Part shown: positions 2,023 through 19,105 of the stretch, piece by piece
Layout: every line of letters starts with the position of its first letter
Position numbering within the stretch: position 1 is the stretch's first letter
Translations under genes and position numbers: made by a program
Assembly (NCBI GenBank): GCA_041494705.1
Contig: JBGQBI010000004.1
Span: forward strand, 210,001-242,000
Length of the DNA: 32,000 nucleotides
From: Candidatus Methanoperedens sp.
GTDB taxonomy: Archaea; Halobacteriota; Methanosarcinia; Methanosarcinales; Methanoperedenaceae
Direction: 5' to 3'
Notes under the pieces: generated by a model
Told to the model about the DNA's origin: nothing
Seen by the model: only the letters and a program-made list of their open reading frames with translations
The model's database searches: none

Positions 2023-2027
2023 AAAAT

Positions 2028-2402: not shown

Positions 2403-2403
2403 G

Positions 2404-2637
2404 ATGGGAATAGTTCACGACTTCGAACTGGACGTTAGGGGCGAGGCATGCCCCTATCCTTTAATCAGGACGAAACAGCAGGTGGGCAGGCTTCAAAAGG
2501 GCGAGGTGCTCAAAGTCCTTGCCAGCGACCCGGTGGCGCCGCAGAATATCGATGCGTGGGCAAAAAAATCGGGGAATGAACTGCTGGCTGTGGAAGTAAA
2601 CAACAGCACCTACAATATCTTTGTCTGGAAAGGCTAA
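2404..2637 (+). CDS. tusA: TusA/SirA-family sulfur carrier
   Basis: 77 aa. The segment LDVRGEACPYPLIRTKQ carries the CPxP motif, followed by LKVLASDP. Confidence 0.85.
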   Translation: MGIVHDFELDVRGEACPYPLIRTKQQVGRLQKGEVLKVLASDPVAPQNIDAWAKKSGNELLAVEVNNSTYNIFVWKG

Positions 2638-2731
2638 TCCCAACTTTTTTTTAAAACCTCCAAAGCGCATAATAAGAGCAATTTTTGCCTGCACCTTAAA
2701 TTACAATAAACCGGAAATTCATGGGATATAT

Positions 2732-2950
2732 ATGCATAAATTAGACGCAAGAGGCAAGGTATGCCCACTGCCCCTGTTTTATACCAAGAAAGAAATCGAT
2801 GAGTTGAAACCCGGGGAAGAGCTTGAAGTACTGACTGACGATGCAATCGCAAAAGATACGATTCCACGGTGGAGCAGGGAACACGGGCATGAAATAGTTA
2901 AGGTCGAGGATTCAGGCCGCGATTTTAGAGTGGTTATAAGAAAACGCTGA
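2732..2950 (+). CDS. tusA: TusA/SirA-family sulfur carrier, second paralogue
   Basis: 72 aa from the ATG at 2732. The segment LDARGKVCPLPLFYTKK carries CPxP, followed by LEVLTDD. It is separated from the first tusA by a T8 run. Confidence 0.85.
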   Translation: MHKLDARGKVCPLPLFYTKKEIDELKPGEELEVLTDDAIAKDTIPRWSREHGHEIVKVEDSGRDFRVVIRKR

Positions 2951-3024
2951 ACTGTTTTTTTGCTTTAACTATTACTGACATTCCTGTCAAAATTTTTTAT
3001 AATCTGATTGCAGGAGGTGTAGAG

Positions 3025-3111
3025 ATGGGAGGCGCTCACTCCCAGCCCTGTTGCACAGGTGTGCAACCGCGATGTGATTGCACATGCACTTACTTCTTTC
3101 AGTCTATTTAA
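3025..3111 (+). CDS. Possible 28-aa Cys-rich micropeptide (MGGAHSQPCCTGVQPRCDCTCTYFFQSI)
   Basis: A perfect SD AGGAGGTG lies 6 nt upstream of the ATG. The peptide has five Cys residues. The ORF overlaps a copy of the C-rich intergenic element, so it may be fortuitous. Confidence 0.3.
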   Translation: MGGAHSQPCCTGVQPRCDCTCTYFFQSI

Positions 3112-3153
3112 GTATTGTAAAGAGGATGATTTTGCTTTGAACCCTCGCTAATT

Positions 3154-3223
3154 GGAATAAATGCGGAGCAATTTGCCTGATTTATTCGGTTTCTGGAACT
3201 ATAATGGCAACTGTTGCTGATTT
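3154..3223 (+). repeat. 70-bp direct repeat, copy 2 (38 nt upstream of S-layer ATG)
   Basis: 66 of 70 nt are identical to 954-1023. Confidence 0.9.
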
Positions 3224-3260
3224 ATCTAATGTTATATAGGTTTGGAAAAATGTCTGGCGC

Positions 3261-5387: not shown

Positions 5388-5485
5388 AACCATCTTCTTT
5401 TTTATGAAAATATCTTACCTTAAAAAGGCAGCAGACTGGGCCAAGGAACACCCGAAATAAGGTATGGTTAAGAGAGAAATATAGA

Positions 5486-5557
5486 AGCCAGAGTCCGGAC
5501 TCGAACCGGAATGAAATCGCTCTGCTGGCGATTGCGTAGCCGCTCTGCCACCCTGGC
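5486..5557 (-). tRNA. tRNA-Cys (GCA)
   Basis: Cloverleaf read by hand on the minus strand. The acceptor stem is GCCAGGG/CUCUGGC. The T arm is UCCGG-UUCGAGU-CCGGA. The anticodon stem is AUCGC/GCGAU with loop CAGCAGA. The discriminator is U and no CCA is encoded. Confidence 0.85.
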
Positions 5558-5604
5558 ATTCAATATAAAAAGCGCATAACCAAAATATAAAAAATAGGAA
5601 GGGG

Positions 5605-5892
5605 TTATCCGGTCGGCACCCCCGGGGCATTATTCAGCCCGTACAGGCTCTGGCGCGCATCCTGGAAATAGAAGCGCTCCTGCAATATATTTTCTTCTTT
5701 CAGTCTGTTCAGGGCGTATCTGACTGTTCTTGCCGGAAGATAGGTTTCCCTCGCAATATCCTTTTGTGTCAAAAAGCCGCTGGATTCCAGCACTTTGAAA
5801 ACAAGCTTTGCCGAGGGAGGTAAATGATCTATCTTCGCGTTCGCTAACTCAAATAGCTGTCCATTGTTTGCAAAGACGATTCCTTCTTGAAT
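5605..5892 (-). CDS. Small winged-helix transcriptional regulator; +1 frame of module C; start unresolved
   Basis: The segment LPPSAKLVFKVLESSGFLTQKDIARETYLPARTVRYALNRLKEENIL is a typical archaeal wHTH. The first canonical start (GTG 5793) would delete helix 1. The frame is open up to 5892, where a TGA overlaps the module ATG. Confidence 0.7.
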   Translation of the reverse strand: MQEGIVFANNGQLFELANAKIDHLPPSAKLVFKVLESSGFLTQKDIARETYLPARTVRYALNRLKEENILQERFYFQDARQSLYGLNNAPGVPTG

Positions 5893-5911
5893 TCATTTTA
5901 AAATTCTCCAG
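5849..5911 (-). promoter_or_regulatory. Translation-start module copy C (SD GGAG, ATG 5896, AGAAGG-N6-CTTTGC, 0-frame TGA 5851-5849)
   Basis: The 0-frame reads atg aat tca aga agg aat cgt ctt tgc aaa caa tgg aca gct att tga (MNSRRNRLCKQWTAI). Confidence 0.7.
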
Positions 5912-6221
5912 CTTAAACTTGAATTTAACCTTTATAAACTTATTTATTGGAGCAATTATTGTCATAATTGATCTGATTTTTTATGAAGTGAAAAAAATAG
6001 GAGGCGAAACGCGACCCCCGACACATTCCACTTTTGCCGTGATTGGCATAGGGTAATAGACACGCATAATTATTAAAACCTCATAAATCGGCTATTTTAT
6101 CCAGAAATCTTCTAATTCTGGAACGAAAAAGGAAAAAATTGCCTTTATCCTTTCAGTTCTGTTAAAGTGCAATTGGGCGCAGAGTTGCCTGATTGCGCAG
6201 AATTTTAATTACGTTACTATA

Positions 6222-6242
6222 CCCCACAGCTCTGCTGTGGGG
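6222..6242 (-). terminator. Hairpin CCCCACAGC-TCT-GCTGTGGGG just downstream of the sulfite reductase stop
   Basis: A perfect 9-bp stem with a 3-nt loop lies 23 nt past the stop at 6265. Confidence 0.4.
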
Positions 6243-6264
6243 AGGTTCATTATTACAAAACACA

Positions 6265-6921
6265 TCATTGAATTTCTGCTTTGAATTTTTCGAATCCGAT
6301 CTCATCGATGAATTCCCCAAGCCGCTTTTTCTTGGAATGTCTTTTATAATACTCTATTACCCTGTCCACCGTCTCAAGTACTTCCTCATCTGACAGGTTT
6401 TCACCAAGTGTTTCGCCTAATCTGGGTTTTAATCCCGCACTGCCGCCTACAGTGATTTTCCAGCCTTTCGGAGTGCCCACAATTCCTATATCTTTGATAA
6501 TGTGTTCTGAACACGAATTAAGACATCCGGAAACCCCGATTTTTAATTTTGATGGTAATTCCAACCCATCATATTTTTTATCAAGTTTTAAGCCCATCCC
6601 GACAGAATCCTGCTGGCCTTTTTTACAGAAAGTAGTACCCGGGCATATCTTGACACTCCGCACGCAGAGTCCTAATGCGTGAGCGGGTTTCATTTGCAAG
6701 TCTGCCCATACATTATCCAGGTCTTCCTGTTTTATTCCTACAATGGCTATCCTCTGGGCAGAAGTTAATTTCAATGCACCGGCATTATACTTTTCTGCTA
6801 CGTCTGCTATTTTTCTAAGTCCTGCCGAAGTTATTATTCCGCCGGGTATGTGCGGTGCAACCGCGAATGTTTTCTCGTCTCTTTGTACAATAGCTCCTTT
6901 TTCAAGCATGTCTTTTGCCAT
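6265..6921 (-). CDS. Small siroheme/[4Fe-4S] sulfite (nitrite) reductase, assimilatory low-molecular-weight type
   Basis: 218 aa. The cysteine pattern CPGTTFC (CX5C) plus SGCLNSC (CX3C) is the siroheme-cluster ligand set. An SD AGGAGGA lies upstream. Confidence 0.8.
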   Translation of the reverse strand: MAKDMLEKGAIVQRDEKTFAVAPHIPGGIITSAGLRKIADVAEKYNAGALKLTSAQRIAIVGIKQEDLDNVWADLQMKPAHALGLCVRSVKICPGTTFCKKGQQDSVGMGLKLDKKYDGLELPSKLKIGVSGCLNSCSEHIIKDIGIVGTPKGWKITVGGSAGLKPRLGETLGENLSDEEVLETVDRVIEYYKRHSKKKRLGEFIDEIGFEKFKAEIQ

Positions 6922-6961
6922 AAATTCCTCCTGAATAATTATAATATAATATTGTGCCTAT

Positions 6962-7402
6962 TTATTTAAAGTACCTGTCGAGCAAGCCTTTCAATGCTCT
7001 GGCATGTCTTGCCTCATCTCTTGCCGAGACATCGAAAAAGTCATGGGCTTCATCTATCCCCGCTTCTTTTGATTTTATTGCGGAGTCCCGTTTATATTTA
7101 TTTGCGCCTTCTTCGCCTTTTTGCATTCGCAAGAGGTTCTCTTTTGTGCTGCTGGAAATCAGACCGCTTAGTTCGGCATATCCTGCCGCGTGCCATGCTT
7201 CTTCCATAGCTATCGTTTTCAGTACTTCTGCCACCTCAGGGTAGCCTTCCCGCTGTGCCTGTTTTGCCATTGCAAGATAGAGCCCGACTTCGCCTGTCTC
7301 GCCTTTGAAACTGTTTCCGGCTGCTTCTTCCATAACCGTTCCTTTGACTATTCCGATTTTGTTCTCGCTTATCAAGTCCATAATTTCTCCATTGTTAGAC
7401 AT
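6962..7402 (-). CDS. Rubrerythrin-family diiron protein (no rubredoxin domain)
   Basis: 146 aa with two ExxH motifs (MEEAWHA and RDEARHA). It lies 40 nt upstream of the sulfite reductase on the same strand. Confidence 0.85.
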
Positions 7403-7426
7403 ATATCTAACAATTAGATTCGAATA
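7391..7426. promoter_or_regulatory. Operator copy 1: overlapping palindromes ATTGTTAGA-N6-TCTAACAAT and ATCTAA-caa-TTAGAT
   Basis: The 24-mer atatctaacaattagattcgaata (7403-7426) matches 8164-8187 at 22 of 24 positions. It abuts the rubrerythrin start codon. Confidence 0.6.
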
Positions 7427-7454
7427 GAACTGATATCATATATATTTTACTGAC

Positions 7455-7545
7455 AAGGATGATTGATTGCTATCAGAGAAGGAGAAGACTGACACGCTTA
7501 GCCGGAATTATAAGAGTATGGCAAAGATTCCTAATCAGGGAAAGG
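7455..7545 (+). pseudogene. Decayed fragment of an arsR-like HTH gene
   Basis: tatcagagaaggaga (7471-7485) is identical to 8293-8307 inside the intact ArsR-V4R gene. The flanks are alignable (attgaTTGYtatcag and acac..ttagccg). The fragment has several in-frame stops and no start codon. Confidence 0.45.
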
Positions 7546-7644
7546 GTCCGGTGTCCCGATATATAATACGCAGGAAAACTTCTCTGTTTTCCTCACAAGT
7601 TTTTTAGATTATATCAGGAATTTGTTTTCCGTTATCTTTTAAAA

Positions 7645-8049
7645 TCACATCTTATTTTTTAAAAAAACGCCCATTTTCTTATCCACTTTGCCAATATGCT
7701 GTATGAGCCAATCTACGATTTTTTTATTAATTTTGATGGTTAGACTAAGGGTTTCCCCTTGCGTTTCAAACTGTTTCTTTAATTCTAAAAAGTCTTTTAT
7801 AAAATTCGTATGCTGTTCCTTATGTGAGGGGTAATCCGGGTAGCCGTATCTGGTCATATATTTTTCTTCAGTACCGAAATGTGTCACTACATATTCTTCC
7901 AAAAACTTTACTAACTTACTAACCTCTTCTCTTCCTTTGCATTGACGGCAAGCTTCAAACAGCATATCAACCCTATTAAACAATTCTTTGTGTTGATTAT
8001 CTATCTCTTCTATGCCGGTTGCCAGATTCTGATTCCATTCTATTGTCAT
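7645..8049 (-). CDS. Hemerythrin-like metal-binding protein
   Basis: 134 aa. It starts IEWNQNLATGIEEIDNQHKELF and also contains HFGTEE, HKEQH and IQHIGKVD. Confidence 0.85.
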   Translation of the reverse strand: MTIEWNQNLATGIEEIDNQHKELFNRVDMLFEACRQCKGREEVSKLVKFLEEYVVTHFGTEEKYMTRYGYPDYPSHKEQHTNFIKDFLELKKQFETQGETLSLTIKINKKIVDWLIQHIGKVDKKMGVFLKNKM

Positions 8050-8163
8050 TTTGATTTCTCCATGTATCGTAAATTGTTAATTGAATCCAGATATTTTAGT
8101 TAGAAACACGGAATAAAAGAAATACACGGATTTATACTGATTTGTGATAAAGATGTGAAATTA

Positions 8164-8187
8164 ATATCTAACAGTTAGATTCAAATA
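8164..8187. promoter_or_regulatory. Operator copy 2: ATCTAA-cag-TTAGAT within a conserved 24-mer
   Basis: It lies 26 nt upstream of the ArsR-V4R ATG, in the divergent region shared with the hemerythrin gene. Confidence 0.6.
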
Positions 8188-8213
8188 TTACAATAACCTT
8201 ATTCAACATATAC

Positions 8214-8969
8214 ATGACGTATATCCTGAAACCTGAAGAAGAAGTTGCGAAAATCTTCTCAGATAAGACGAGACTCAAGATAATTGAATTGTTATCAGAG
8301 AAGGAGATGGCAAATACACAATTAGCCGAGCTTACAAAACTGAGTAAAGCAACGATTTCCCATCATATCAAATTACTTGTTGATGCCGGGATTGTGAAAA
8401 TAGCACGGATAGAGCACGAGGAACATGGCATCCGGATGAAATTCTACACTGTTAATCCCAATATTCTTTCGGTTGCAGTACATAAACAGGGCATTTTAAG
8501 GGAGCAAATCAAAAAAGAAATACAGGAAGCCATGATGAGCGAAAGAAAAAGAAAAGGCTTCATAAACGAAGCGAAACCGGCTTTCTTTAGATTGCTGAAA
8601 TCATCCATGCTCAATGCGGGGATAGACCTGGATAAACCATTCTACGATACTGGCTACGAGATAGGGTCGGAAGTCATTTCTAAAGAAATAAAAGGGTCTA
8701 CGCTCGAAGATGTATTAAAAGAACTGGCGGATATCTGGAAGAAGCTCGGACTTGGAACTATAGAATTGGCTGAGGCTAATAAGATCAGGGTGAAGGATTG
8801 CTACCAGTGTTCCAATATGCCGGATGTAGGAAAACCTCTCTGCCCGAGCGATGCCGGAATTATTGCAGGCGTCCTGGATAAAACCCTCGGAAAAAAACAT
8901 TCTGTCAAAGAAGTAAAATGCTGGGGCACAGGATACGATTTCTGCGAATTTGAGATAGAAGAGCTGTAG
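8214..8969 (+). CDS. ArsR-family HTH regulator with C-terminal V4R (4-vinyl-reductase-like) sensor domain
   Basis: The N-terminal part RLKIIELLSEKEMANTQLAELTKLSKATISHHIKLLVDAGIV is an ArsR-type HTH. The C-terminal Cys-rich part CYQCSNMPDVGKPLCPSDAGIIAG...CEFEIE is V4R-like. Confidence 0.8.
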   Translation: MTYILKPEEEVAKIFSDKTRLKIIELLSEKEMANTQLAELTKLSKATISHHIKLLVDAGIVKIARIEHEEHGIRMKFYTVNPNILSVAVHKQGILREQIKKEIQEAMMSERKRKGFINEAKPAFFRLLKSSMLNAGIDLDKPFYDTGYEIGSEVISKEIKGSTLEDVLKELADIWKKLGLGTIELAEANKIRVKDCYQCSNMPDVGKPLCPSDAGIIAGVLDKTLGKKHSVKEVKCWGTGYDFCEFEIEEL

Positions 8970-9000
8970 ATTTTTAAAAATACTCTACATATTCGTGCGC

Positions 9001-9108
9001 TCATTTCGCCCCGAATCCTCCGCGCAGGAAGCGCCTCAGGTCTTCTTCATCTATGTTTTCGACATTTTCGTTTACATCATCGTATATTTCTTCTTTTTTA
9101 TAATCCAT
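9001..9108 (-). CDS. 35-aa acidic micro-protein (MDYKKEEIYDDVNENVENIDEEDLRRFLRGGFGAK)
   Basis: An SD GAGGT lies 4 nt upstream of the ATG. The ORF is in the same frame as the upstream Zn-ribbon ORF. Confidence 0.45.
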   Translation of the reverse strand: MDYKKEEIYDDVNENVENIDEEDLRRFLRGGFGAK

Positions 9109-9171
9109 ATTTACCTCGAATTGGAAAAAGGAGCGCAAATGGATAGGATAAAAGCGCCCCTTTTTCTTTTG

Positions 9172-9318
9172 TCATTTTAACAGCGCCTCCTCTATGGCAA
9201 AAGCATCCATGCCGCAGTCCACGCATGATACCATGGCAATTCCTTTGATGAAATCTGCGCTTGTTATCGGTATTGCATGCTTGCAGTTGGGGCACCTGTA
9301 TTGTCTGGCAGAGGTCAT
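9172..9318 (-). CDS. 48-aa zinc-ribbon protein (CPNC...CVDC)
   Basis: The product is MTSARQYRCPNCKHAIPITSADFIKGIAMVSCVDCGMDAFAIEEALLK. An SD GGTGG lies upstream. Its ATG overlaps the upstream ORF stop as ATGA. Confidence 0.6.
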   Translation of the reverse strand: MTSARQYRCPNCKHAIPITSADFIKGIAMVSCVDCGMDAFAIEEALLK

Positions 9319-9443
9319 ATCAGCCACCAGACATAATCCTGTACCCGAATGCGCTCCGGCTTTTCCTGCTTGCCTTTCAGCAATGCGTCCTTGCTAACTA
9401 TACCATCGGGGGCAAAGTAAACCCCTTCTTTCTTCTTGATTTG
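9315..9443 (-). CDS. 42-aa protein in the +1 frame of module D; start unresolved
   Basis: The product is QIKKKEGVYFAPDGIVSKDALLKGKQEKPERIRVQDYVWWLI. It has no canonical start, and its stop overlaps the Zn-ribbon ATG. Confidence 0.45.
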   Translation of the reverse strand, partial: QIKKKEGVYFAPDGIVSKDALLKGKQEKPERIRVQDYVWWLI

Positions 9444-9457
9444 TCATTTTAACACCA
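9394..9457 (-). promoter_or_regulatory. Translation-start module copy D (SD GGTG, ATG 9447, AGAAGG-N6-CTTTGC, 0-frame TAG 9396-9394)
   Basis: The 0-frame reads atg aca aat caa gaa gaa aga agg ggt tta ctt tgc ccc cga tgg tat agt tag. Confidence 0.6.
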
Positions 9458-9649
9458 GAAATTCCATAGTTTTCATACATATTCAAATCACGTAAACAGG
9501 CTATATTTGATAGCTATATGCGGTTTTCAGGAACAAAAGGGCAATAATTACCCGGAACTTTCAGCATTGAAACAACAGAAAAATGATTCTTCTAAAGTTT
9601 AACCCATACGGCAATTATTGTCGTGATTGTTCTGGTATTGCATTAGATA

Positions 9650-10135
9650 GTGACAAAATATGCCTGTATATCCAGGGATATATATCCTGTCCGCATGGAC
9701 AGATGCGGTGAAAAAAACCAATGTCAAATAAAAGAAGGGATCATTTTTGCCACCTATAACAAATGGGATGGTATAGAATCATCGATAGATGAGGGTACTG
9801 AGGAAAAACTAAAGGTCTCCGCGTATGAGAACTACGCAGAAGAAGGGCTGAGAAAACCGGAATACCGGCGCATGCGAATAAGCATTGAAAGATTGGCTCG
9901 CACACTTGCAGTAATTGAAACAAGCTGGCAGCGTGCGGGCAGGCATCATGCGCTTCGGGAGCTTGAAAACGTACTCACCCGGCAGCATGAAGTTGAGAGG
10001 GATGCAGAGAATATCGAAGATGTATTCCTGCGCGGATACATCTATGAGCAGCTCGATATTGTTGCTGCAACAAGACGGTCTCTGGCTGAAGAAGTCAGAT
10101 GGGATATCGAAGCCAGTAAGAAAACTTGGGAATAA
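9650..10135 (+). CDS. Hypothetical protein (137-161 aa); its frame is the +1 frame of module F
   Basis: The long ORF contains QIKEGIIFATYNKWDG at the module. Candidate starts are GTG 9650, ATG 9695 (no SD), or the module ATG 9721 with a shift. No family was recognised. Confidence 0.6.
   Translation: MTKYACISRDIYPVRMDRCGEKNQCQIKEGIIFATYNKWDGIESSIDEGTEEKLKVSAYENYAEEGLRKPEYRRMRISIERLARTLAVIETSWQRAGRHHALRELENVLTRQHEVERDAENIEDVFLRGYIYEQLDIVAATRRSLAEEVRWDIEASKKTWE
9707..9759 (+). promoter_or_regulatory. Translation-start module copy F (SD GGTGA, ATG 9721, AGAAGG-N6-TTTTGC, 0-frame TAA 9757)
   Basis: The 0-frame reads atg tca aat aaa aga agg gat cat ttt tgc cac cta taa (MSNKRRDHFCHL). Confidence 0.6.
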
Positions 10136-10136
10136 T

Positions 10137-10436
10137 ATGAATGGGATGGATATTTTTGTCCGGAAATCTGCCAATTACCGGGTCTGGGTAGATGAGGCAG
10201 GAGTGGGGCGCATCAGGGTACTGAAGAGGATAAATTTCAAGACTCTTGTGTCACTTTTTGAGGAGCTTCACGGCGAGATAAGAAAGAGAATTGCCGGGAA
10301 CCCAGGAAAAGTCCATATTATTTTTTACATATCGAAATCCCTCTACGATGAAATGTCTGTCAATGCAAAAGAATTCCTTGGATTCTGTCAATCCTGCATG
10401 GGTATCAAATTCGAGCTTGTTTTGATAGGGATGTAA
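10137..10436 (+). CDS. Hypothetical 99-aa protein
   Basis: The ATG lies 1 nt after the upstream stop. The product starts MNGMDIFVRKSANYRVWVDEAGVGRIRVLKRINF. A hairpin GATGCAC/GTGCATC follows the stop. No family was recognised. Confidence 0.55.
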   Translation: MNGMDIFVRKSANYRVWVDEAGVGRIRVLKRINFKTLVSLFEELHGEIRKRIAGNPGKVHIIFYISKSLYDEMSVNAKEFLGFCQSCMGIKFELVLIGM

Positions 10437-10812
10437 AACGATGCACCCTGTTTGATTTTTGTGCATCCTTTTGGAATAATTGTGTCAACATCTGCCTCTT
10501 TCTGTAATTATATATGTTTGCCGGTATTATCTTTCAATTGCGATTGATATGATTGAAGAAATATGTAACCAGTCCCGAATAAATAACTCCTGTCGTATGA
10601 AGGTTGAAAATAGAAAACCCAGAAATGATATCGAGTTTGATAAAATTGTTAAATTCCTGAATGACCAGAAAGCAGTGCTGGATTATGCAGGTTTGAATTA
10701 ACTGCATTTTTTGCCGCAATTATTCGGTTTTTGTAATCATCGTTCCAATTATCGCCTGTTTCTCTGCATATTTATATGTGCCTGCTTATTTGCGCTTGCT
10801 TATTTCATAAGC

Positions 10813-10860
10813 AGGTGAATTAAAATGAATACAAGAAGGAATCATCTTTGCCGTCACTGA
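10813..10860 (+). promoter_or_regulatory. Translation-start module copy B (SD AGGTGAA, ATG 10825, AGAAGG-N6-CTTTGC, 0-frame TGA 10858)
   Basis: The 0-frame reads atg aat aca aga agg aat cat ctt tgc cgt cac tga (MNTRRNHLCRH). Confidence 0.7.
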
Positions 10861-10969
10861 TGACAACAATTTAATGAATAGATATATAAAACATAGTGCA
10901 GAATTCCTGCATATCCGGGATTTCCTGCAACAACAGAAAATTATTCTAAATAATTCGAGGTGGAATTAA
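10829..10969 (+). CDS. 46-aa ORF in the +1 frame of module B, stop overlapping the pstS start (TAATG)
   Basis: The product is IQEGIIFAVTDDNNLMNRYIKHSAEFLHIRDFLQQQKIILNNSRWN. The frame is open across AT-rich DNA. It has an internal ATG at 10874. Confidence 0.4.
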   Translation: MQEGIIFAVTDDNNLMNRYIKHSAEFLHIRDFLQQQKIILNNSRWN

Positions 10970-12006
10970 TGAAAGGAAAAATTATCACAATTATACTAAT
11001 TACAGTCATCACAGGTGCATTATTATCAGGATGCATCGGTAATCCAAAGTCTGAAACCCAGTCCACGCCTACCGCTGCTGTCACTACAACACCGGCATCA
11101 TCCGGAGCCACGGCTGTACAGACCGCTGTAAGCTCAAAGGAACTTGAGGGCACTATAACGCTGTCAGGCGCATTTGCTCTGTACCCTATGGCTGTGCGCT
11201 GGGGCGAGGAGTTCCAGAAGCTGCACCCCAAGGTCAAAGTTGATATTTCGGCAGGAGGCGCGGGCAAGGGCATAGCTGACACACTTGGCGGTCTCGTTGA
11301 TATCGGCATGATTTCAAGAGACGTTGATCCCTCGGAGATTCAGAAGGGCGCATATCCAATCGGCGTGACCAAGGATGCCGTTGTGGCCACAGTCAATGCC
11401 AAGAACCCTGTGCTTAATGATCTCCTGAGCAAAGGTGTCAAAAGAAAGACTTTTGCGGATATATATATCAATGGAACAGTAAACTCATGGGGCGATGTCG
11501 TAGGGAAACCTGAAATAAAACAGGAAATACATGTATATACCAGAAGCGATGCATCGGGTGCGTCTGATATATGGGCAAAGTACCTCGGCGGTAAACAGGA
11601 AAGTCTCAAAGGCACAGGCGTTTACGGCGACCCCGGACTGCTTGCTGCTGTGCAGAAAGACCCCCTGGGCATAGGTTATAACAACTACAACTATGCCTTT
11701 GATATGAAGACCGGGCAGCCTGTATCGGGCATCCGGATAATATCATTTGACGTAAATGGGAACGGCGTAGTTGACCCTGAAGAGAATATAAGCACCAAGG
11801 AAAAAACAATTGCAGCCATTAAAAACGGAGTGTTCCCGAGTCCGCCTGCGAGAGTTGAATTATTTGTAACCAAAGGAAAGCCCACGGGAGTTACTTCCGA
11901 ATTTATCAGATGGGTTCTCACAGACGGACAGAAGTATGTGGATGAGGTGGGTTACATACAGTTGTCGAAGGAAACGCTTGATGGTGAGTTGAAAAAGGTT
12001 GAATGA
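10969..12006 (+). CDS. pstS: Phosphate ABC transporter substrate-binding lipoprotein PstS
   Basis: The ATG at 10969 follows GAGGTGG. It has a lipobox-like LLSGC, a Thr/Ala-rich linker, and SGAFALYPMAVRWGEEF...ISAGGAGKGIADTLGGLVDIGMISR. Confidence 0.9.
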   Translation: MKGKIITIILITVITGALLSGCIGNPKSETQSTPTAAVTTTPASSGATAVQTAVSSKELEGTITLSGAFALYPMAVRWGEEFQKLHPKVKVDISAGGAGKGIADTLGGLVDIGMISRDVDPSEIQKGAYPIGVTKDAVVATVNAKNPVLNDLLSKGVKRKTFADIYINGTVNSWGDVVGKPEIKQEIHVYTRSDASGASDIWAKYLGGKQESLKGTGVYGDPGLLAAVQKDPLGIGYNNYNYAFDMKTGQPVSGIRIISFDVNGNGVVDPEENISTKEKTIAAIKNGVFPSPPARVELFVTKGKPTGVTSEFIRWVLTDGQKYVDEVGYIQLSKETLDGELKKVE

Positions 12007-12062: not shown

Positions 12063-12986
12063 ATGAATGTTAGAAGACTTAAGGATGCTTTTGCAAGCAG
12101 GCTCATGCTGGCTGCCGCTATTTTCTCAAGTTTTCTTGTACTTATTATCGCTTTTGTGCTTTATTGGAGATCAAAGCCGATTTTTGAGGTTAAATCAGTT
12201 GGCGCCCTTCTCTTCGGCAGCACCTGGATGCCTTTTCAGGGAGAGTTCGGTTTTTATCCATTCATCCTGGGTACTCTCTACGTGACGCTGCTGGCTATGG
12301 CAATTTCCGTACCCCTCTCAATACTGAGTGCAATCTATCTTGCTGAGTATGCGCATGAAAACGTGAGGGCAAAGGTTCTCCCGATGATAGATTTGCTTGC
12401 GGGCATACCGCCTGTTGTCTACGGTGTTTGGGGTGTTCTTGCAGTTGTACCGTTGATTGCATATATCGCACCTGTACTGGGAAAGTCCGGGATACCATTT
12501 CTAAATATGAGCGGCTACTCTACCGGTTACAGTTTACTTGCCGGGGGCATCGTTCTTGCAATTATGGTTTTTCCTATTATTATTTCAATCTCGGAGCAGG
12601 TATTGCGGGCTGTACCCTCAGACGTGAGGGAGGCATCCCTGTCGCTTGGCGCAACGAGATGGCAGACTGTAAAGCATGCAGTGATACGCATTGCCTATCC
12701 CGGGATGGCCGCCGCCGTCATTCTTGGATTTTCCCGGGCTATCGGCGAGACCATGGCTGTTTTAATGGTCGTGGGGAATGTCCCGAAGATTCCCACTTCG
12801 GTATTTGATTCCGCATATCCACTGACCGCGCTCATTGCCAATAACTACGGTGAGATGATGTCGATACCGCTGTATGATTCTGCCCTGCTGCTTGCCGCCC
12901 TTATACTGATGCTTGTAATCCTGTTCTTCACTCTGGCTGCCCGGTTGATATTGATAAATATCGAGAGGAGGATGGCGAATGGATAA
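12063..12986 (+). CDS. pstC: Phosphate ABC transporter permease PstC
   Basis: 307 aa and polytopic. It has an EAA-type loop SLSLGATRWQTVKHAVIRIAYPG. Confidence 0.9.
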   Translation: MNVRRLKDAFASRLMLAAAIFSSFLVLIIAFVLYWRSKPIFEVKSVGALLFGSTWMPFQGEFGFYPFILGTLYVTLLAMAISVPLSILSAIYLAEYAHENVRAKVLPMIDLLAGIPPVVYGVWGVLAVVPLIAYIAPVLGKSGIPFLNMSGYSTGYSLLAGGIVLAIMVFPIIISISEQVLRAVPSDVREASLSLGATRWQTVKHAVIRIAYPGMAAAVILGFSRAIGETMAVLMVVGNVPKIPTSVFDSAYPLTALIANNYGEMMSIPLYDSALLLAALILMLVILFFTLAARLILINIERRMANG

Positions 12987-13827
12987 ACTGCGTGAAGAAA
13001 AATTGTTTAAAATTCTGATGCTCGCATCGCTTGCTGTCGTTATCGGGAGCCTCTTCATGGTTGTCGGGGTGATTATATGGAACGGCGTACCTGCGCTCTC
13101 GCTTTCTATGATAACCCAGACACCCAAAGGAGGGTATTATCTTGGAAAGGAGGGCGGTATCCTGAATGCCATAGTGGGTTCCTTATACCTGGCGTTTGGA
13201 AGCGTAATTCTCGCCCTCATTATCAGCCTGCCGGCGGCCTTATCGCTGCAGAAAGACTATATCGGGAGAACAAGGCTTGCATATTATATCAGGCTCTCCC
13301 TCGATGTTCTCTGGGGCACTCCCTCAATCGTGTACGGCGCATTTGGTTTTATCGTAATGTTATATTTAGGTATGCGGGCATCGCTTCTGGGTGGAATAAT
13401 AGTTCTTACTGTTTTGCAGCTGCCGATAATGATAAGATCAATGGAAGAAGTAATAAAAATGGTTCCAAATGAGTTAAAAGAGGCTTCTTATACCCTGGGG
13501 GCGACACGCTTTGAGACAACTTTCGGTGTTGTGGTGAGGCAGGCGCTGCCTGGTATAGTGACCGCGGTGATCCTTTCTTTCGGGCGTGGAATCGGAGATG
13601 CTGCATCCATTCTCTTTACCGCGGGCTATACGGACAGCCTGCCGCGCTCACTCCTTGATCCAGTGGCATCACTCCCCCTTGCAGTATTTTTCCAGCTTGG
13701 CACACCATTCCCGGAGGTGCAGGCGCGGGCGTATGCAAGTGCGCTGATACTTCTTTTTATTGTACTTGCACTCAGTTTAACATCACGATATTTATCCAGG
13801 AAATTCATGAAAAACATTATCAGGTAA
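12979..13827 (+). CDS. pstA: Phosphate ABC transporter permease PstA
   Basis: 282 aa. It contains EASYTLGATRFETTFGVVVRQALPG and overlaps pstC by 8 nt. Confidence 0.9.
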   Translation: MDKLREEKLFKILMLASLAVVIGSLFMVVGVIIWNGVPALSLSMITQTPKGGYYLGKEGGILNAIVGSLYLAFGSVILALIISLPAALSLQKDYIGRTRLAYYIRLSLDVLWGTPSIVYGAFGFIVMLYLGMRASLLGGIIVLTVLQLPIMIRSMEEVIKMVPNELKEASYTLGATRFETTFGVVVRQALPGIVTAVILSFGRGIGDAASILFTAGYTDSLPRSLLDPVASLPLAVFFQLGTPFPEVQARAYASALILLFIVLALSLTSRYLSRKFMKNIIR

Positions 13828-13831
13828 TCCA

Positions 13832-14152
13832 ATGAAAAACTTAAGTTTAATCAAAAGAAGGGGTATGCGAAGCATACCCCCAGACCGGATAAAGCGAGGT
13901 GTCGCTAAACTTTTAGAAAAGTTTATTAAAGACAACACGTATGGCTTTGCCATACGTAAACCTTTAAGAAAGGTTTATCAAAAAACTTTAGGAAAGTTTT
14001 ATCAAACGAGGGGTATGCTGCGCATACCCCAACACTGCGCAAGCCGAAGTATCGGCTTTCAAACGACAGGTATGCAACGCATACCTGAACACCACGTAAA
14101 CCGGGGTATCGGTTTACGTGGACACCGAATAAAGCGAGGTGTCGCTTTTTGA
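13832..14152 (+). other. Array of 11 perfect hairpins filling the pstA-pstB gap; also an uninterrupted 106-codon, highly basic ORF
   Basis: Hairpin coordinates are 13860-13880, 13890-13906, 13907-13924, 13937-13957, 13958-13976, 13982-14000, 14010-14030, 14041-14058, 14067-14087, 14093-14120 and 14129-14147. The ATG at 13832 lies 4 nt after the pstA stop. The stop overlaps the pstB TTG start. Confidence 0.8.
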
Positions 14153-15141
14153 AAAGCCATATCAGCATCCAGAATGTCAATGCATTCTACAGCGACCATC
14201 AGGCACTTCGGGGCATAACTGTTGAAATACCGCAAAAGCAGATAACAGCTATCATCGGCCCGAGCGGATGCGGGAAGAGTACCTTGCTCAAGTGTTTCAA
14301 CAGGCTTATCGACCTCACAGACGGAGCAAGAGTATCAGGGAAAATAATAGTGGATGGCATGGATGTGCTCAGCGCCAGCTCTGAAATAACCGAAATAAGG
14401 CGAAGGATGGGTTTGCTTCCGCAAAAGCCAAACCCGCTCCCAATGTCGATATACGATAATGTTGCATACGGGCCCAAGCTGCATGGAAAACCGGACAAGA
14501 AAGAACTGGACGAAATTGTTGAAAAATACCTGAAAATAGCTGGTTTGTGGGATGAAGTGAAAGACCGCCTGAAGTCTCCGGCATCGAAACTCTCCATAGG
14601 GCAGCAGCAGAGGCTCTGCCTTGCAAGAGGACTGGCTGTCGAGCCCGAAATTATCCTGTGCGATGAGCCGACATCAGCATTAGACCCGGTCTCATCGCAG
14701 CATATCGAGGAGCAGCTCCTGAAACTCAAGAAGGATTACACCATCGTGATAGTTACTCACAACATCCACCAGGCAATGAGGCTTGCTGACTACGTTATCC
14801 ATCTATACCTCGGTGAAATCGTGGAACATGGGCCCGCAAATGAAGTGTTTGAAAACCCGAAAGAAGAGAGGACGCGGGCGTATATTAACGGGACTTTCCT
14901 TGTTGATGTGAAAGTGGATAAAGAGATAAATCTGAAAGGAAATGTGTGCCCGTATAATTTTGTGTATGCCAAACAGGCGCTGTCTGCGCTTCCTAAAGGA
15001 AAAATCCTTAAGATAATCGTGGACGATCCCACGGCAGTAACCGAAGTTCCGAGGGGCATGGAAGCCGACGGTCATGAGGTATTAAGCGTGAATCAGCAAA
15101 ATAAAACGGATTGGGAGATAATCATAAGGAAGCAAAGCTAA
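14149..15141 (+). CDS. pstB: Phosphate ABC transporter ATPase PstB fused to a C-terminal TusA-like domain
   Basis: It has Walker A GPSGCGKST, signature LSIGQQQRL and Walker B IILCDEPTSALD. The PstB core ends at RTRAYINGTF (about aa 250). Residues 256-328 read INLKGNVCPYNFVYAKQAL...ILKIIVDDP...GHEVLSV...WEIIIRK, which is the TusA pattern. Confidence 0.85.
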   Translation: MKSHISIQNVNAFYSDHQALRGITVEIPQKQITAIIGPSGCGKSTLLKCFNRLIDLTDGARVSGKIIVDGMDVLSASSEITEIRRRMGLLPQKPNPLPMSIYDNVAYGPKLHGKPDKKELDEIVEKYLKIAGLWDEVKDRLKSPASKLSIGQQQRLCLARGLAVEPEIILCDEPTSALDPVSSQHIEEQLLKLKKDYTIVIVTHNIHQAMRLADYVIHLYLGEIVEHGPANEVFENPKEERTRAYINGTFLVDVKVDKEINLKGNVCPYNFVYAKQALSALPKGKILKIIVDDPTAVTEVPRGMEADGHEVLSVNQQNKTDWEIIIRKQS

Positions 15142-15163
15142 CGCTTTTCTCATATATGACTAA

Positions 15164-16429
15164 TTAACTGCCGTTATCAAGCAGCAATTTTGCAAGGAAT
15201 TTCATGTACATCACAAGGTCTTCCACACGGATATTCTCATCATCCGCATGCGCATTGCTCTCTGTCCTCCTTCCTATCCCGAAGCAGCATGCAGGCAGTC
15301 CCGTGACCTTGACCGCATAAGCAACGTCAAGGCTTCCCTGCGCCCCGGCAAGCCTTACTTCCCTTCCCGCAACTTCGCCTGCCACCCGCTTTACTTCCTT
15401 AACCCATGGATGGTTCATATCAGTGAGCAGGGGGGCGTAAATATCATCACAGCTCATCTTGAAATCAATATCGGGATATTTTTCTCTCACCCGTGAAAGA
15501 GCGGCGTTCATCTCTTTGCAGACATCCTCAAATTTCTCTTCCGGGATATAGCGGCGGTCGCCTTTCATCGTGCACCTGTCAGGCACGATATTCTGTTTAA
15601 CACCCGCATTTATTATTGTGATATTGAGAACCGGCATTAAAGTTTCAATGCCTGTTTTGCGGCTGATTGCGATACTGGCAGGCACTTTTGAGCGTCGTAT
15701 CTCAACTTTTGCCTTGAGTTCCAATAACTCATTCATGACAGGGACGGATTTCTCTATCGCATTTACACCCAGAAAACTGCTGCCGCTGTGGTATGATTTC
15801 CCGATAACATCTATCTGCCAGTCCACGTTCCCGTTTGAGGCGATGGTGATATCGTCGCTGTCCCCGTCCATGCTCAGGAAATAATCCGCAGAAAGTTTAC
15901 CAATGTCTGCAAGATGGCAGAGACCGGAATAGGGCCCCATTTCCTCATCCGTGGTCAGGGCGATGTTCAGGTTATATCCGGGTTTGATGCCAAGTTCCTT
16001 CATGGCAGAAAGCACGGTTAATAGCGCGCTGACGCCTCCTTTTGAGTCTGCCACCCCGCGCCCGAATATGCGTCCTTCCCTCACGGTTACCTCAAACGGC
16101 GGCACACTCCAGTTTGCACTTGCCGGGACGACATCCAGATGCGTATTGATTAAAAGGGTTTCTGGCGCTCCCACATTTAATGTAGCCGATAGATTCACCC
16201 GCTCTGCCGCAAGATGCGAAAGGCGGGGATTTTTTTTCTCGAATAATTCCCGGGGCATGCGGATAATCTCAACTTCAAAATCCAGCTCCCTGAGCCTGCG
16301 GGCAGCCAGTTCCATGACTTTCCCGTAGTTCTCACCGGGCGGGACATGCGTTTGAATGCGCACAAGTTCATCGAGCGTCTTTATTGCAATATCTGTCCTT
16401 GATTCCAGGAAACCGAATAATGCCTTCAT
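15164..16429 (-). CDS. M20-family metallopeptidase / deacylase (ArgE/DapE-like)
   Basis: It contains NTHLDVVPA, GRGVADSKGG and LTTDEEMG. I prefer the ATG at 16429 because the GTG at 16498 would overlap the divergent gene. Confidence 0.8.
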   Translation of the reverse strand: MKALFGFLESRTDIAIKTLDELVRIQTHVPPGENYGKVMELAARRLRELDFEVEIIRMPRELFEKKNPRLSHLAAERVNLSATLNVGAPETLLINTHLDVVPASANWSVPPFEVTVREGRIFGRGVADSKGGVSALLTVLSAMKELGIKPGYNLNIALTTDEEMGPYSGLCHLADIGKLSADYFLSMDGDSDDITIASNGNVDWQIDVIGKSYHSGSSFLGVNAIEKSVPVMNELLELKAKVEIRRSKVPASIAISRKTGIETLMPVLNITIINAGVKQNIVPDRCTMKGDRRYIPEEKFEDVCKEMNAALSRVREKYPDIDFKMSCDDIYAPLLTDMNHPWVKEVKRVAGEVAGREVRLAGAQGSLDVAYAVKVTGLPACCFGIGRRTESNAHADDENIRVEDLVMYMKFLAKLLLDNGS

Positions 16430-16491
16430 CCGGTTCCAAAAGGACTTTATCACCCAAATCCTTTTTGCCTTGATTACAGCTATTAGAGCCG

Positions 16492-17583
16492 ATGGCACTT
16501 GAAGAAGAAATAAAGGCGATTGCGGAAGAAATATCCAAAACTAAATATAATAAGGCTACCGAAGGTCACATCGGGCGCCTTAAATCAAAGATTGCGCATC
16601 TTCGGGATGAAGTGCAGAAGAGGGCTTCTTCAAAAACCGGCGGGGAAGGATTTTCGGTAAAGAAATCAGGCGATGCTTCCGTTGTGCTCGTTGGGTTCCC
16701 GTCTGTAGGCAAAAGCACGCTCCTTAACAGCCTCACGGGTGCGGAATCGGCGGTTGCGGCTTATGAATTCACCACACTGGATGTGGTTCCAGGGGCGATG
16801 GAATATAAGGGGGCAACAATCCAGATACTGGACGTACCCGGACTTGTACGCGGGGCTGCCTCAGGCAGGGGCCGCGGCAAAGAGGTCATCGCTGTAATAC
16901 GGAACGCCGACCTTGCTGTGATATTGCTCGACGTTTTCCAGCTCGTCCATTATGATGTTCTCGTCGAGGAATTAAATGAAGCTGGTATCCGCGTCAATTC
17001 AAGACCGCCTGATGTCACGATAAAGAAAAAAGCAAGAGGCGGAGTTATTATAAGCAGCACTGTTGATCTTGGCCTTGACGAGGACACCATAAAAGCTATC
17101 CTGGGCGAGTACAGAATTCACAACGCCAACATATTGATACGCGAGACGATCACCATCGACCAGTTGATAGATGTTGTCCTTGGTAACAGGAAATATATCC
17201 CTATTATCGTGGTTATCAATAAAATCGACCTTGCGGACGAATATACCCTCAGGAAATGCAAAGAGAAATTCCCGGATGCTGTCCTTGTTTCTGCTGATAA
17301 AAAAGTGCATATTGAAGAGCTTAAAGAAAAATTATATGAAAAACTGGGGTTTATCAGGATTTACCTGAAGCCACAGGGCAAGCCCGCAGACATGGAAGAA
17401 CCCCTGATAGTGAGGGAAGGCTTCACCATCGGCGATGTATGCGACAAGCTTCACCGCGATTTCAAAAAAAGGTTCAGGTATGCGCAGGTCTGGGGTTTAT
17501 CTGCAAAGCATGAGGGACAGCGCGCCGGCCTTGACCATATGATGTACGATGATGATATCCTGACAATAGTGTTGAGGAAATGA
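16492..17583 (+). CDS. DRG-family (Obg-like) GTPase with TGS domain
   Basis: It has G1 GFPSVGKST, G3 DVPGL and G4 NKID, plus the C-terminal TGS-like segment FIRIYLKPQGK... Confidence 0.85.
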   Translation: MALEEEIKAIAEEISKTKYNKATEGHIGRLKSKIAHLRDEVQKRASSKTGGEGFSVKKSGDASVVLVGFPSVGKSTLLNSLTGAESAVAAYEFTTLDVVPGAMEYKGATIQILDVPGLVRGAASGRGRGKEVIAVIRNADLAVILLDVFQLVHYDVLVEELNEAGIRVNSRPPDVTIKKKARGGVIISSTVDLGLDEDTIKAILGEYRIHNANILIRETITIDQLIDVVLGNRKYIPIIVVINKIDLADEYTLRKCKEKFPDAVLVSADKKVHIEELKEKLYEKLGFIRIYLKPQGKPADMEEPLIVREGFTIGDVCDKLHRDFKKRFRYAQVWGLSAKHEGQRAGLDHMMYDDDILTIVLRK

Positions 17584-18005
17584 GACAGATGAAACCCGTA
17601 ACGCCTCTTCTGACCGTGGACGCGCTTATAATATTTGAGGGAAAACTTGTCCTTATCAGGCGCAGGAACACGCCGTTTAAGGATTGTCTCGCGCTCCCAG
17701 GCGGGTTCGTTGAAGTTGGGGAGACGGTTGAGTCTGCTGCCGTTCGCGAGGCAAAGGAAGAGACGGGACTTGATATAGAACTAATCAAGCTCCTCGGCGT
17801 GTATTCTGACCCTTTGCGCGACCCGAGAGGTCATACTGTTTCAATATGTTATCTTGCAAAAGGGAGGGGAAAACTTAAAGCAGGTTCGGATGCTAAGGAT
17901 ATAGGGCTTTTCGGTTTAAGTGAAATACCCGAACTGGCATTTGACCATAATAAAATCATAGAAAACGCCAGGAGTGATATTAATGGAATTTTGTCCGAAG
18001 TGTAA
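17580..18005 (+). CDS. NUDIX hydrolase
   Basis: The Nudix box is GGFVEVGETVESAAVREAKEETGL. It overlaps the upstream gene as ATGA. Confidence 0.85.
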   Translation: MRQMKPVTPLLTVDALIIFEGKLVLIRRRNTPFKDCLALPGGFVEVGETVESAAVREAKEETGLDIELIKLLGVYSDPLRDPRGHTVSICYLAKGRGKLKAGSDAKDIGLFGLSEIPELAFDHNKIIENARSDINGILSEV

Positions 18006-18291
18006 GAGCATGATGATGCCCGCTAAAAATGTCTATAAGTGCAGGAATGCAAAATGCGGGTTCGAAAAAGAGATTAAAGAAAGCTTTGTCTCAAAGACCA
18101 AACGGGATGAGCGTGAGGTAACTGTCCTTGAGGGGCGCGAGATGGGGATGCCCACGACCAGAGCTAAATGCGAAGAGTGCGGAAACGATACTGCTTACTG
18201 GTGGCTCAGGCAGCTCCGCTCTGCTGATGAGAGCGAGGTAAGGTTTTTCAGGTGCACGAAATGCGGGATGACGTGGAGAGAGTATAATTAA
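17983..18291 (+). CDS. tfs: Transcription factor S (TFS / RpoM-like)
   Basis: It has two zinc ribbons (CPKC..CRNAKC and CEEC..CTKC) and the acidic loop RSADE. The ATG at 17983 follows AGGAGTGAT. Confidence 0.85.
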   Translation: MEFCPKCKSMMMPAKNVYKCRNAKCGFEKEIKESFVSKTKRDEREVTVLEGREMGMPTTRAKCEECGNDTAYWWLRQLRSADESEVRFFRCTKCGMTWREYN

Positions 18292-18332
18292 AGGAATAAA
18301 TCTTATAAACCCCGCAACCAAAATAGCCCGTC

Positions 18333-18857
18333 ATGAAGCAGAAACTCACAGTCAACCTCGAAACCGACCTGAAACTCTCCGCAAACGTCTGGAAATTCGG
18401 GGACGATATAGACACCGATGCAATCATCCCGGGCAAATACCTCACAATCAATAAGCCCGGCGAGCTTGCAAAACACGCTTTTGAGGGCGTGCGCCCTGAA
18501 TTCGCAAGCGGGGTGAAGGATGGGGACATAATCGTGGCAGGTTTTAATTTCGGGTGCGGCTCATCGCGCGAACATGCGCCTCTTGCGCTTCGGGGAGCGA
18601 AGGTGAAATGCATCATCGCAAAATCATTTGCCCGCATCTTTTTCAGGAACGCCATAAACATCGGACTTCCGCTTCTTGAGTGCCCTGATACTGATAAGAT
18701 AGAGGAAGGAGACCACATAGAGGTCGAATTTGAGTCCGGGATAATCACCAATACCACAAAGGACGAGACTTACCAGGCAACGCCGCTGCCCGACTTCGTG
18801 CGCGGAATAGTGGATGCCGGAGGTCTCATCGGATATGCACAGAAAATGGTTCAGTGA
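18333..18857 (+). CDS. 3-isopropylmalate/homoaconitate dehydratase small subunit (LeuD/HacB family)
   Basis: It contains WKFGDDIDTDAIIPGKYL and GFNFGCGSSREHAP. No large-subunit gene is adjacent. Confidence 0.8.
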   Translation: MKQKLTVNLETDLKLSANVWKFGDDIDTDAIIPGKYLTINKPGELAKHAFEGVRPEFASGVKDGDIIVAGFNFGCGSSREHAPLALRGAKVKCIIAKSFARIFFRNAINIGLPLLECPDTDKIEEGDHIEVEFESGIITNTTKDETYQATPLPDFVRGIVDAGGLIGYAQKMVQ

Positions 18858-18915
18858 GATTGATTTTTATTATAATTTCTTTACGCACTTCTCGTCTGGC
18901 ATGAAAAAGTGTAAA

Positions 18916-18984
18916 AACCACAGAGAACGCAGAGGACACAGAGAAAAATAACAAATCTCTGTGCTCTCTGTGTCCTCCGTGGTT
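18916..18984 (+). repeat. CCACAGAG hairpin repeat, copy 1
   Basis: The arms AACCACAGAGAACGCAGAGGACACAGAGA and TCTCTGTGCTCTCTGTGTCCTCCGTGGTT form a roughly 29-bp imperfect stem. The copy lies between convergent genes. Confidence 0.85.
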
Positions 18985-19105
18985 AATTATCTGACCGGGA
19001 TTGATAATCCAAATCAACTTATCTATTTCAATAGCGGGATAAGAAAATGCGTTTATACTTTCCTATAGGTTAAAAAAAAGAAATTAGTAATATGCATTTA
19101 GCATA

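Follow-up and report, generated by a model that had tools for sequence, protein, structure and literature searches.

The 32,000-nucleotide (nt) window analysed here (contig JBGQBI010000004.1 of Candidatus Methanoperedens sp., positions 210,001 to 242,000; coordinates below are those of the window unless a locus is named) carries an operon for a Pst-type ATP-binding cassette (ABC) importer in the order pstS, pstC, pstA and pstB, and the PstB ATPase encoded by its last gene is continued at the C terminus by a domain of the TusA fold. ABC importer ATPases are often controlled via C-terminal accessory domains, and PstB is the textbook exception, relying on PhoU. The 330-amino-acid (aa) fusion open reading frame (ORF) occupies 14149..15141 on the forward strand and begins with a TTG start codon. 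The operon and the parts of the fusion are:

10960..12006, forward strand: pstS-like substrate-binding protein, 348 aa, first gene of the operon (Pfam PBP_like_2, 102 bits)
12063..12986, forward strand: pstC permease (TIGR02138, 261.4 bits; cutoff 196.45)
12979..13827, forward strand: pstA permease (TIGR00974, 208.5 bits; cutoff 193.45)
13828..14148, forward strand: pstA-pstB spacer, about 320 nt long and filled with some ten short hairpins in tandem (repeats and inverted repeats)
14149..14898, forward strand: PstB ATPase domain, residues 1-250 (TIGR00972, 347.2 bits), with Walker A GPSGCGKS, signature LSIGQQQR, Walker B ILCDEPT and H204
14899..14919, forward strand: short linker LVDVKVD, residues 251-257 (predicted local distance difference test, pLDDT, about 80 in the model)
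14920..15138, forward strand: TusA-fold domain, residues 258-330 (stop codon 15139-15141)

The ATPase part passed the PstB equivalog TIGR00972 narrowly, over residues 5-250 and against a cutoff of 343.2 bits, and the Pfam ABC_tran match covered residues 20-176. Scanning the whole protein with Pfam PF01206 (TusA) gave 65.6 bits on residues 258-328 (E = 3.6e-18), above the gathering score of 28.6 and spanning the entire profile (1-70 of 70), and the 80-aa tail by itself scored 69.4 bits. The original prediction, made from the letters of the window, had placed a TusA-like domain at 14914-15141, which corresponds to residues 256-330 and the stop codon, and had read the second proline of the TusA motif CPxP as asparagine. 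The motif is indeed G264-N-V-C267-P-Y-N270, with Asn270 in place of that proline, and Cys267 (codon tgc, 14947-14949) sits at the N-terminus of helix 1. Both free TusA genes used there for comparison are real as well (2404-2637, 81.2 bits; 2732-2950, in ORF 2621-2950, 89.1 bits), and the tail shares 31-34% identity with their products. In comparison with curated subfamily models, the tail stayed below the cutoffs for TusA (NF001423, 32.2 against 78), YedF (NF008242, 53.4 against 79) and YeeD/TsuB (NF041048, 32.8 against 147.5). It is a member of the TusA superfamily that lies outside TusA proper and the other characterised subfamilies.

Structure prediction agreed with the profile match. The full-length AlphaFold2 model, built from a 65-sequence alignment, had a mean pLDDT of 86.5 and a predicted template modelling (TM) score, pTM, of 0.71; the tail reached a pLDDT of 93-95 within it and 95.8 when modelled alone, and formed a two-layer beta-alpha-beta-alpha-beta-beta fold in the models. 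The linker leads from the final ATPase helix (240-247) to the first strand of the tail (258-261). The tail model superposed on the YeeD domain of the YeeE-YeeD complex (8j4c) with a TM score of 0.92, a root-mean-square deviation (rmsd) of 1.0 A and 31% identity, and on E. coli TusA in the IscS-TusA complex (3lvj) with TM scores of 0.85/0.88, an rmsd of 1.4 A and 22-23% identity. By sequence, its nearest solved relatives were TM0983 (E = 1e-10) and Spirochaeta YeeE-YeeD (E = 2e-8). The ATPase part was matched by Foldseek to chain 9k3s_C, E. coli PstB in the cryo-electron microscopy (cryo-EM) structure of PstSCAB (TM 0.91, rmsd 2.5 A, 47% identity). Profile and superposition together bear out the predicted TusA-like C-terminal domain.

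We regard it as practically certain that the PstB-TusA fusion is real and that its tail has the TusA fold. Both domains were present in 120 of the 120 best homologs (74-100% identity; records named Methanoperedens, Methanoperedenaceae or 'uncultured archaeon'), and about 240 protein clusters from independent assemblies had the same architecture, with frame and linker kept. Among archaeal orthologs, the ratio of nonsynonymous to synonymous substitution rates (dN/dS) was 0.06-0.19 for the tail and 0.04-0.11 for the ATPase part. Purifying selection thus acts on the tail, and selection maintains the fusion.

The opposite possibility, that a sequencing error removed the stop codon of pstB ahead of a distinct tusA gene or that the tail is translated alone from an internal GTG at codon 254, finds its material in NCBI records of several Methanoperedens and Methanolobus assemblies, which show just a short TusA family protein at this place. 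A search with the tail alone returned solely such proteins, 75-77 aa long and named 'sulfurtransferase TusA family protein' (P0121-P0141; several Methanoperedens assemblies and Methanolobus chelungpuianus). In five of five related loci checked (L001-L005; 6001-6234 in each), the annotated short TusA lay 770-840 nt downstream of pstA, with no gene called between. However, the ORF was continuous at 330-331 aa in the three of these inspected (L001, L002 and L004), the annotated protein beginning at the GTG of codon 254, nothing else was called over the ATPase part, and no Shine-Dalgarno-like sequence was seen by eye ahead of that codon. The annotation is split and the gene intact, systematically across several archaeal records. 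Bacterial members, in addition, are annotated full-length as PstB. Apparent stand-alone paralogs of the tail (P0121, P0133 and P0140 among the five checked) were rejected as mis-called tails of continuous fusion ORFs. With the frame and linker preserved in all those clusters, an artefact is so improbable that it can be set aside, and the lost stop codon that the original prediction had asked to exclude is ruled out by ORFs that run on unbroken in all but two of the independent loci examined. These two are members of the archaeal fusion clade, L009 (1680-2549) and L019 (6001-6849), which are truncated or frameshifted inside the TusA tail (ending in KGNVCPFNFVYAKQALHNIEKGGVL followed by a stop codon and running into KDKRCPTHPGKRQ, respectively) and represent either assembly errors in metagenome-assembled genomes or decaying copies. 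Owing to the split annotation, genome inventories could miss the pstB ATPase and overcount free TusA genes.

The distribution of the fusion was narrow. When 1.84 billion representatives (50% identity) were searched exhaustively, 6866 proteins scored E <= 1e-30, and among the best 150 of these, P0147 alone aligned over residues 2-329, the rest ending near residue 250. Thus, the fusion forms a narrow clade within PstB. Scanning one genome per species gave full-length matches in Methanoperedens, Planctomycetia, Brocadiaceae, Omnitrophota, Desantisbacteria and one Deltaproteobacterium, and the fusion of Methanolobus chelungpuianus (L002) was found via the tail search. A search seeded with the bacterial form provided 120 further clusters as best matches, named Brocadia, Jettenia, Omnitrophota, Desantisbacteria, Poribacteria and Phycisphaerae; 112 of them carried a precomputed PF01206 match, and the other 8 were equal in length with a diverged tail. 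Looking for long PstB proteins, as the original prediction had proposed, therefore leads to a clade with an archaeal part (Methanoperedenaceae, Methanolobus and ANME-2, of the anaerobic methanotrophic archaea) and a bacterial part (Brocadiaceae, Omnitrophota, Desantisbacteria, Poribacteria and Phycisphaerae).

These proteins are present in public databases under plain PstB names. The original prediction knew of no described PstB-TusA fusion, and our full-text literature searches likewise turned up no description of one or of a TusA domain on any ABC ATPase. Within the literature searched, an ABC importer ATPase with a C-terminal accessory domain of this fold is new in such a role.

In a neighbor-joining tree of the ATPase part only, the archaeal fusion clade comprised 31 fusions and the two truncated ones, and the bacterial fusion clade 55 fusions and five exceptions. 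The two clades were split by plain PstBs, across branches of just 0.002-0.015, and branches this short do not settle whether the tree holds one origin or two. Archaeal and bacterial tails share 50-62% identity, and either has just 31-34% identity with free TusAs; this speaks for the tail having arisen once and then been transferred between domains of life.

Residue conservation was counted over 239 fusion clusters, 120 of archaeal and 119 of bacterial type. The canonical cysteine was present in 119 archaeal-type and 76 bacterial-type clusters, and Asn270 in all 120 of the former and 88 of the latter. In the archaeal branch, Cys267, P268, N270, D292 and P301 hardly vary at all, being present in 119-120 of 120 clusters, and the last four follow the pattern of the cysteine, being eroded in the bacterial branch. 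In comparison, the fold core, with L262, G308, H309, W322 and K328, is conserved in both. As disulfide partners of Cys267, C49 and C171 were considered and dismissed; they merely mark the archaeal branch. Since 43 of the 119 bacterial-type clusters (36%) lack the cysteine, persulfide or other cysteine chemistry cannot be the function of the whole family, and its near-complete retention in the archaeal type makes it likely that such chemistry matters in Methanoperedens. The suggestion that the tail couples import to a thiol or persulfide signal is thus plausible for Methanoperedens, but not as a general function.

The same counts bear on the possibility that the tail is a scaffold only, joining two PstB subunits or docking a partner protein without thiol chemistry or sensing, the cysteine of Methanoperedens having been inherited with the fold. 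The bacterial branch would suit such a role: the cysteine and its motif decay there while the five fold-core residues persist, any other tail cysteine occurs in only 3 of the 44 Cys-less proteins, and tail length is unchanged even in the 8 of 120 clusters where Pfam fails to detect the domain. However, Cys267, P268, N270 and D292 are kept in 119-120 of 120 archaeal clusters ranging over 74-100% identity, which is stronger retention than expected for a passive relic. We consider a mere scaffold rather unlikely.

Among characterised proteins, the ATPase part is closest to the canonical PstB of E. coli (cryo-EM structures 9k3s and 9k3x), with which it shares, besides identity and fold, the equivalog match and the pstS-pstC-pstA-pstB operon. 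The canonical protein ends at about residue 250 and usually has PhoU as a partner, whereas here there are 80 extra residues, no adjacent phoU and an altered PstS. No PhoU-like ORF was found anywhere in the 32-kb window. The original prediction had noticed this absence and read it as a pointer to a possible regulatory role of the tail, and this argument from the missing gene did not hold. Using a PhoU profile built from a Brocadia locus (L086) and related loci within +/-6 kb, we found phoU at none of the 64 loci of the same subfamily with a plain pstB and at just 2 of 25 fusion loci, both from Brocadiaceae, in which it accompanies another pst operon of canonical type. Absence of phoU is a trait of the subfamily, independent of the tail, and is therefore no specific argument for a regulatory tail; the notion that the tail replaces PhoU was rejected, as all 64 plain loci are likewise without phoU.

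Locus L086 (Candidatus Brocadia sp., SOEU01000004.1) carries two adjacent Pst systems. The fused one (2006-10014) has the order porin-pstS-pstC-pstA-pstB-TusA and no phoU, and the canonical pstS-pstC-pstA-pstB-phoU set lies on the opposite strand (12264-19014), its PstC being fused to a WD40/beta-propeller region (797 aa). The fused system of Brocadia is a second, paralogous Pst system.

Within the operon of the window, the spacer between pstA and pstB is filled by hairpins with 7-8 bp stems and 4-5 nt loops, such as GGGGTATGCGAAGCATACCCC and AAAGCGAGGTGTCGCTTT. The motif GGTATGCNNNGCATACC occurs 3 times in it against 0.04 expected and nowhere else in the window. The corresponding spacer of close relatives measures about 6 nt (L004, L008) or 75 nt with two hairpins (L001). 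The hairpin spacer is a lineage-specific insertion within the operon and resembles a recently expanded repeat. An Rfam scan of the spacer and of the whole window gave no match.

Upstream of the operon, at 6265-8969, lies a cluster of redox and stress genes:

6265-6921, reverse strand: small NIR_SIR-type sulfite/nitrite reductase
6962-7402, reverse strand: rubrerythrin
7645-8049, reverse strand: hemerythrin
8214-8969, forward strand: ArsR-V4R regulator resembling MsvR (163 bits, below the cutoff of 220)

The roughly 2 kb from the MsvR-like gene to pstS (8970-10959) contained only ORFs without a Pfam match (9650-10135 and 9915-10436) and no Rfam match.

Gene neighbourhoods of related loci were mixed. 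A census of 144 downstream ORFs included 9 NfeD, 6 lipoyl synthase, 4 phosphoadenosine phosphosulfate (PAPS) reductase and 3 thioredoxin genes. In the Phycisphaerae contig L088, an ATP sulfurylase gene (10046-11203) lies 29 nt past the fusion, plain pstB is followed by genes of the PAPS reductase family in one contig each of ANME-1 and Omnitrophota, and thioredoxin-domain genes and a TauE sulfite exporter come after some other plain pstB genes of the subfamily. The loci with sulfur or redox genes after pstB are L088, L022 (6756-7580), L030 (7318-8010), L051, L060 and L081. A conserved sulfur-gene neighbourhood was rejected, the census being heterogeneous and sulfur genes rare in it, so these cases give a weak hint. 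In L086 and L087, the upstream genes include phosphate-selective porins (Porin_O_P), and L015 is followed by a gene for a PhoB-like response regulator.

The substrate-binding protein of the operon departs from the canonical form. PstS scored 119 against the NCBIfam PstS cutoff of 206.6, PstS-like models still being the best match. In PBP-1 of C. perfringens, the phosphate ligands are Ser11, Thr12, Ser13, Ser41, Ser59, Arg125, Ser129, Gly130 and Thr131 (PMC5381212). Relative to that protein, SGSTSVGP is replaced by SGA(F/W)A(L/I)YP, IGSSAG by GGAGKG, and DGSGT by D(A/S)(C/A/S)GA. Four of the six side-chain hydroxyl donors are gone (replaced by Ala, Phe/Trp, Ala and Ala), a Phe/Trp and a Lys (GGAGKG) are gained, and Ser59, Arg125 and Gly130 are retained. 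Every related locus (L001-L088) has this altered PstS, whether its PstB is fused or plain, and the altered subfamily is widespread, occurring in Anaerolineae, Aminicenantes, Omnitrophota, Bathyarchaeia, Methanoperedens and others. It has no representative among solved structures; PDB 4JWO was considered and has canonical Ser/Thr motifs. In an unrelated binding-protein family, an aromatic pocket residue gives specificity for ligands with a P-H bond (PMC5700983). The specificity of the altered PstS subfamily may be non-standard, and given that PstC, PstA and PstB exceed their cutoffs and given the porin context, the substrate may still be phosphate.

An importer that brings in another oxyanion, alone or besides phosphate, for example thiosulfate or a reduced or thio-phosphorus species, would give the tail a different task, namely to capture or process the substrate on its cysteine at the cytoplasmic exit. 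The model for such a task is YeeD/TsuB, which works with the thiosulfate transporter YeeE/TsuA (8j4c, 8k1r; PMC11073785). YeeD is, with TM0983, the closest solved relative of the tail, and no other characterised TusA-fold protein is known to do its work bound to a membrane transporter; in some cases YeeD is fused to YeeE, a channel from a protein family unrelated to ABC ATPases. It docks on its own transporter, and its cysteine is essential for uptake and for thiosulfate decomposition (PMC11073785). The altered pocket found throughout the subfamily, the PstS score below cutoff, the aromatic pocket residue and its precedent elsewhere, and the ATP sulfurylase, PAPS reductase, thioredoxin and TauE genes at some loci point in the same direction. 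However, PstC, PstA and PstB exceed phosphate-specific equivalog cutoffs, the porin and PhoB-like genes speak for phosphate, the altered PstS also stands beside plain PstB and is hence not tied to the tail, and sulfur-related neighbours are rare. Additionally, the cysteine that is essential in YeeD is lost in 36% of bacterial-type clusters of the fusion. We therefore hold a YeeD-like substrate acceptor to be unlikely. A more specific version, in which the whole operon is a re-purposed Pst importer whose PstS takes a non-phosphate oxyanion (thiosulfate, thiophosphate or phosphite) that the TusA domain receives or processes on Cys267 at the cytoplasmic face, appears distinctly unlikely to us; if true, it would be an ABC-transporter form of the 'group translocation' by YeeE-YeeD, in nitrate-dependent methane oxidisers and anammox bacteria.

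At 1302-2950, the window contains three DsrE/DsrF-like genes (1302-1631, 1600-2022 and 2019-2402) followed by the two free TusA genes, which have the canonical CPxP. Together they make up a cytoplasmic sulfur-relay set of the methane-oxidising archaeon. A tail acting as a tethered sulfur carrier of TusA type would feed a relay, for example through these DsrE and TusA proteins, and would exert no control over transport. The features it shares with TusA/SirA/YhhP (PF01206; E. coli TusA 3lvj, 1dcj) are those expected of a carrier, namely the same fold with a full profile match, Cys-Pro at the start of helix 1, the DDP motif and the C-terminal I-x-K, and the three DsrE and two TusA genes are clustered in the same window. 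TusA, however, is a free-standing CPxP protein, whereas the tail is fused to an ABC ATPase, is CPxN, and has a cysteine that is dispensable in many bacterial members. Its low identity to the local free TusAs, its scores under all TusA, YedF and YeeD cutoffs, and the lack of sulfur-relay genes consistently linked to the fusion also weigh against this role. The linker is a further obstacle: it has about 7 residues, a length that is constant family-wide except in the few members with a 4-residue insert, whereas the two parts of natural YeeE-YeeD fusions are joined by 40 residues or more. This difference favours a fixed domain over a free-swinging carrier, and we find a tethered carrier improbable.

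A fixed domain directly after the ATPase core recalls the C-terminal domains of type I importer ATPases such as MetN, ModC and MalK, which are regulatory. We tentatively propose, at somewhat less than an even chance, that the tail serves the ATPase dimer as a regulatory or sensor module at its C terminus, with Cys267 as its thiol sensor in Methanoperedens. The tail would control the importer in the manner of the MetN, ModC and MalK domains, and in Methanoperedens Cys267 would read a thiol-based signal, which may be persulfidation, oxidation or an adduct with a sulfur oxyanion. The signal on Cys267 would tune ATP hydrolysis and hence uptake, and Cys-less bacterial members would retain the tail as a structural or partner-binding module. 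The analysis shows the architecture, fold, conservation, selection, distribution and pattern of cysteine retention; control of the ATPase by the tail, the sensor role of Cys267 and the nature of the signal are our inferences.

Structural comparison supports regulation by the tail in one respect: after PstB, the next full-length matches of the model were MetN chains, aligned over 341-350 columns that include the MetN C-terminal regulatory domain. The tail follows the ATPase core as directly, and is of similar size, as the regulatory domains of ABC importers in general (C2/NIL in MetN, TOBE-type in ModC and MalK, CBS in OpuA). Several results weigh against this proposal. Superposed on MetN, the model deviates by an rmsd of about 9 A, and its domains are oriented differently relative to each other. 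A Pfam scan of the tail gave TusA alone, with no NIL, TOBE or CBS domain, and its fold is outside the known ABC regulatory folds. Moreover, the absence of the cysteine from more than a third of bacterial-type clusters means that thiol sensing is not universal, and no cysteine of the ATPase co-varies with Cys267 in the bacterial set, so no disulfide partner is indicated.

The existence of a PstB clade with a TusA-fold domain suggests that sulfur or redox status is directly linked to the uptake of phosphate or a related oxyanion. The clade includes key anaerobic methane and ammonium oxidisers, namely Methanoperedens, Brocadia and Jettenia. With this clade, the known range of the TusA fold reaches further than free-standing carriers, YeeD having been the only characterised case attached to a transporter so far.

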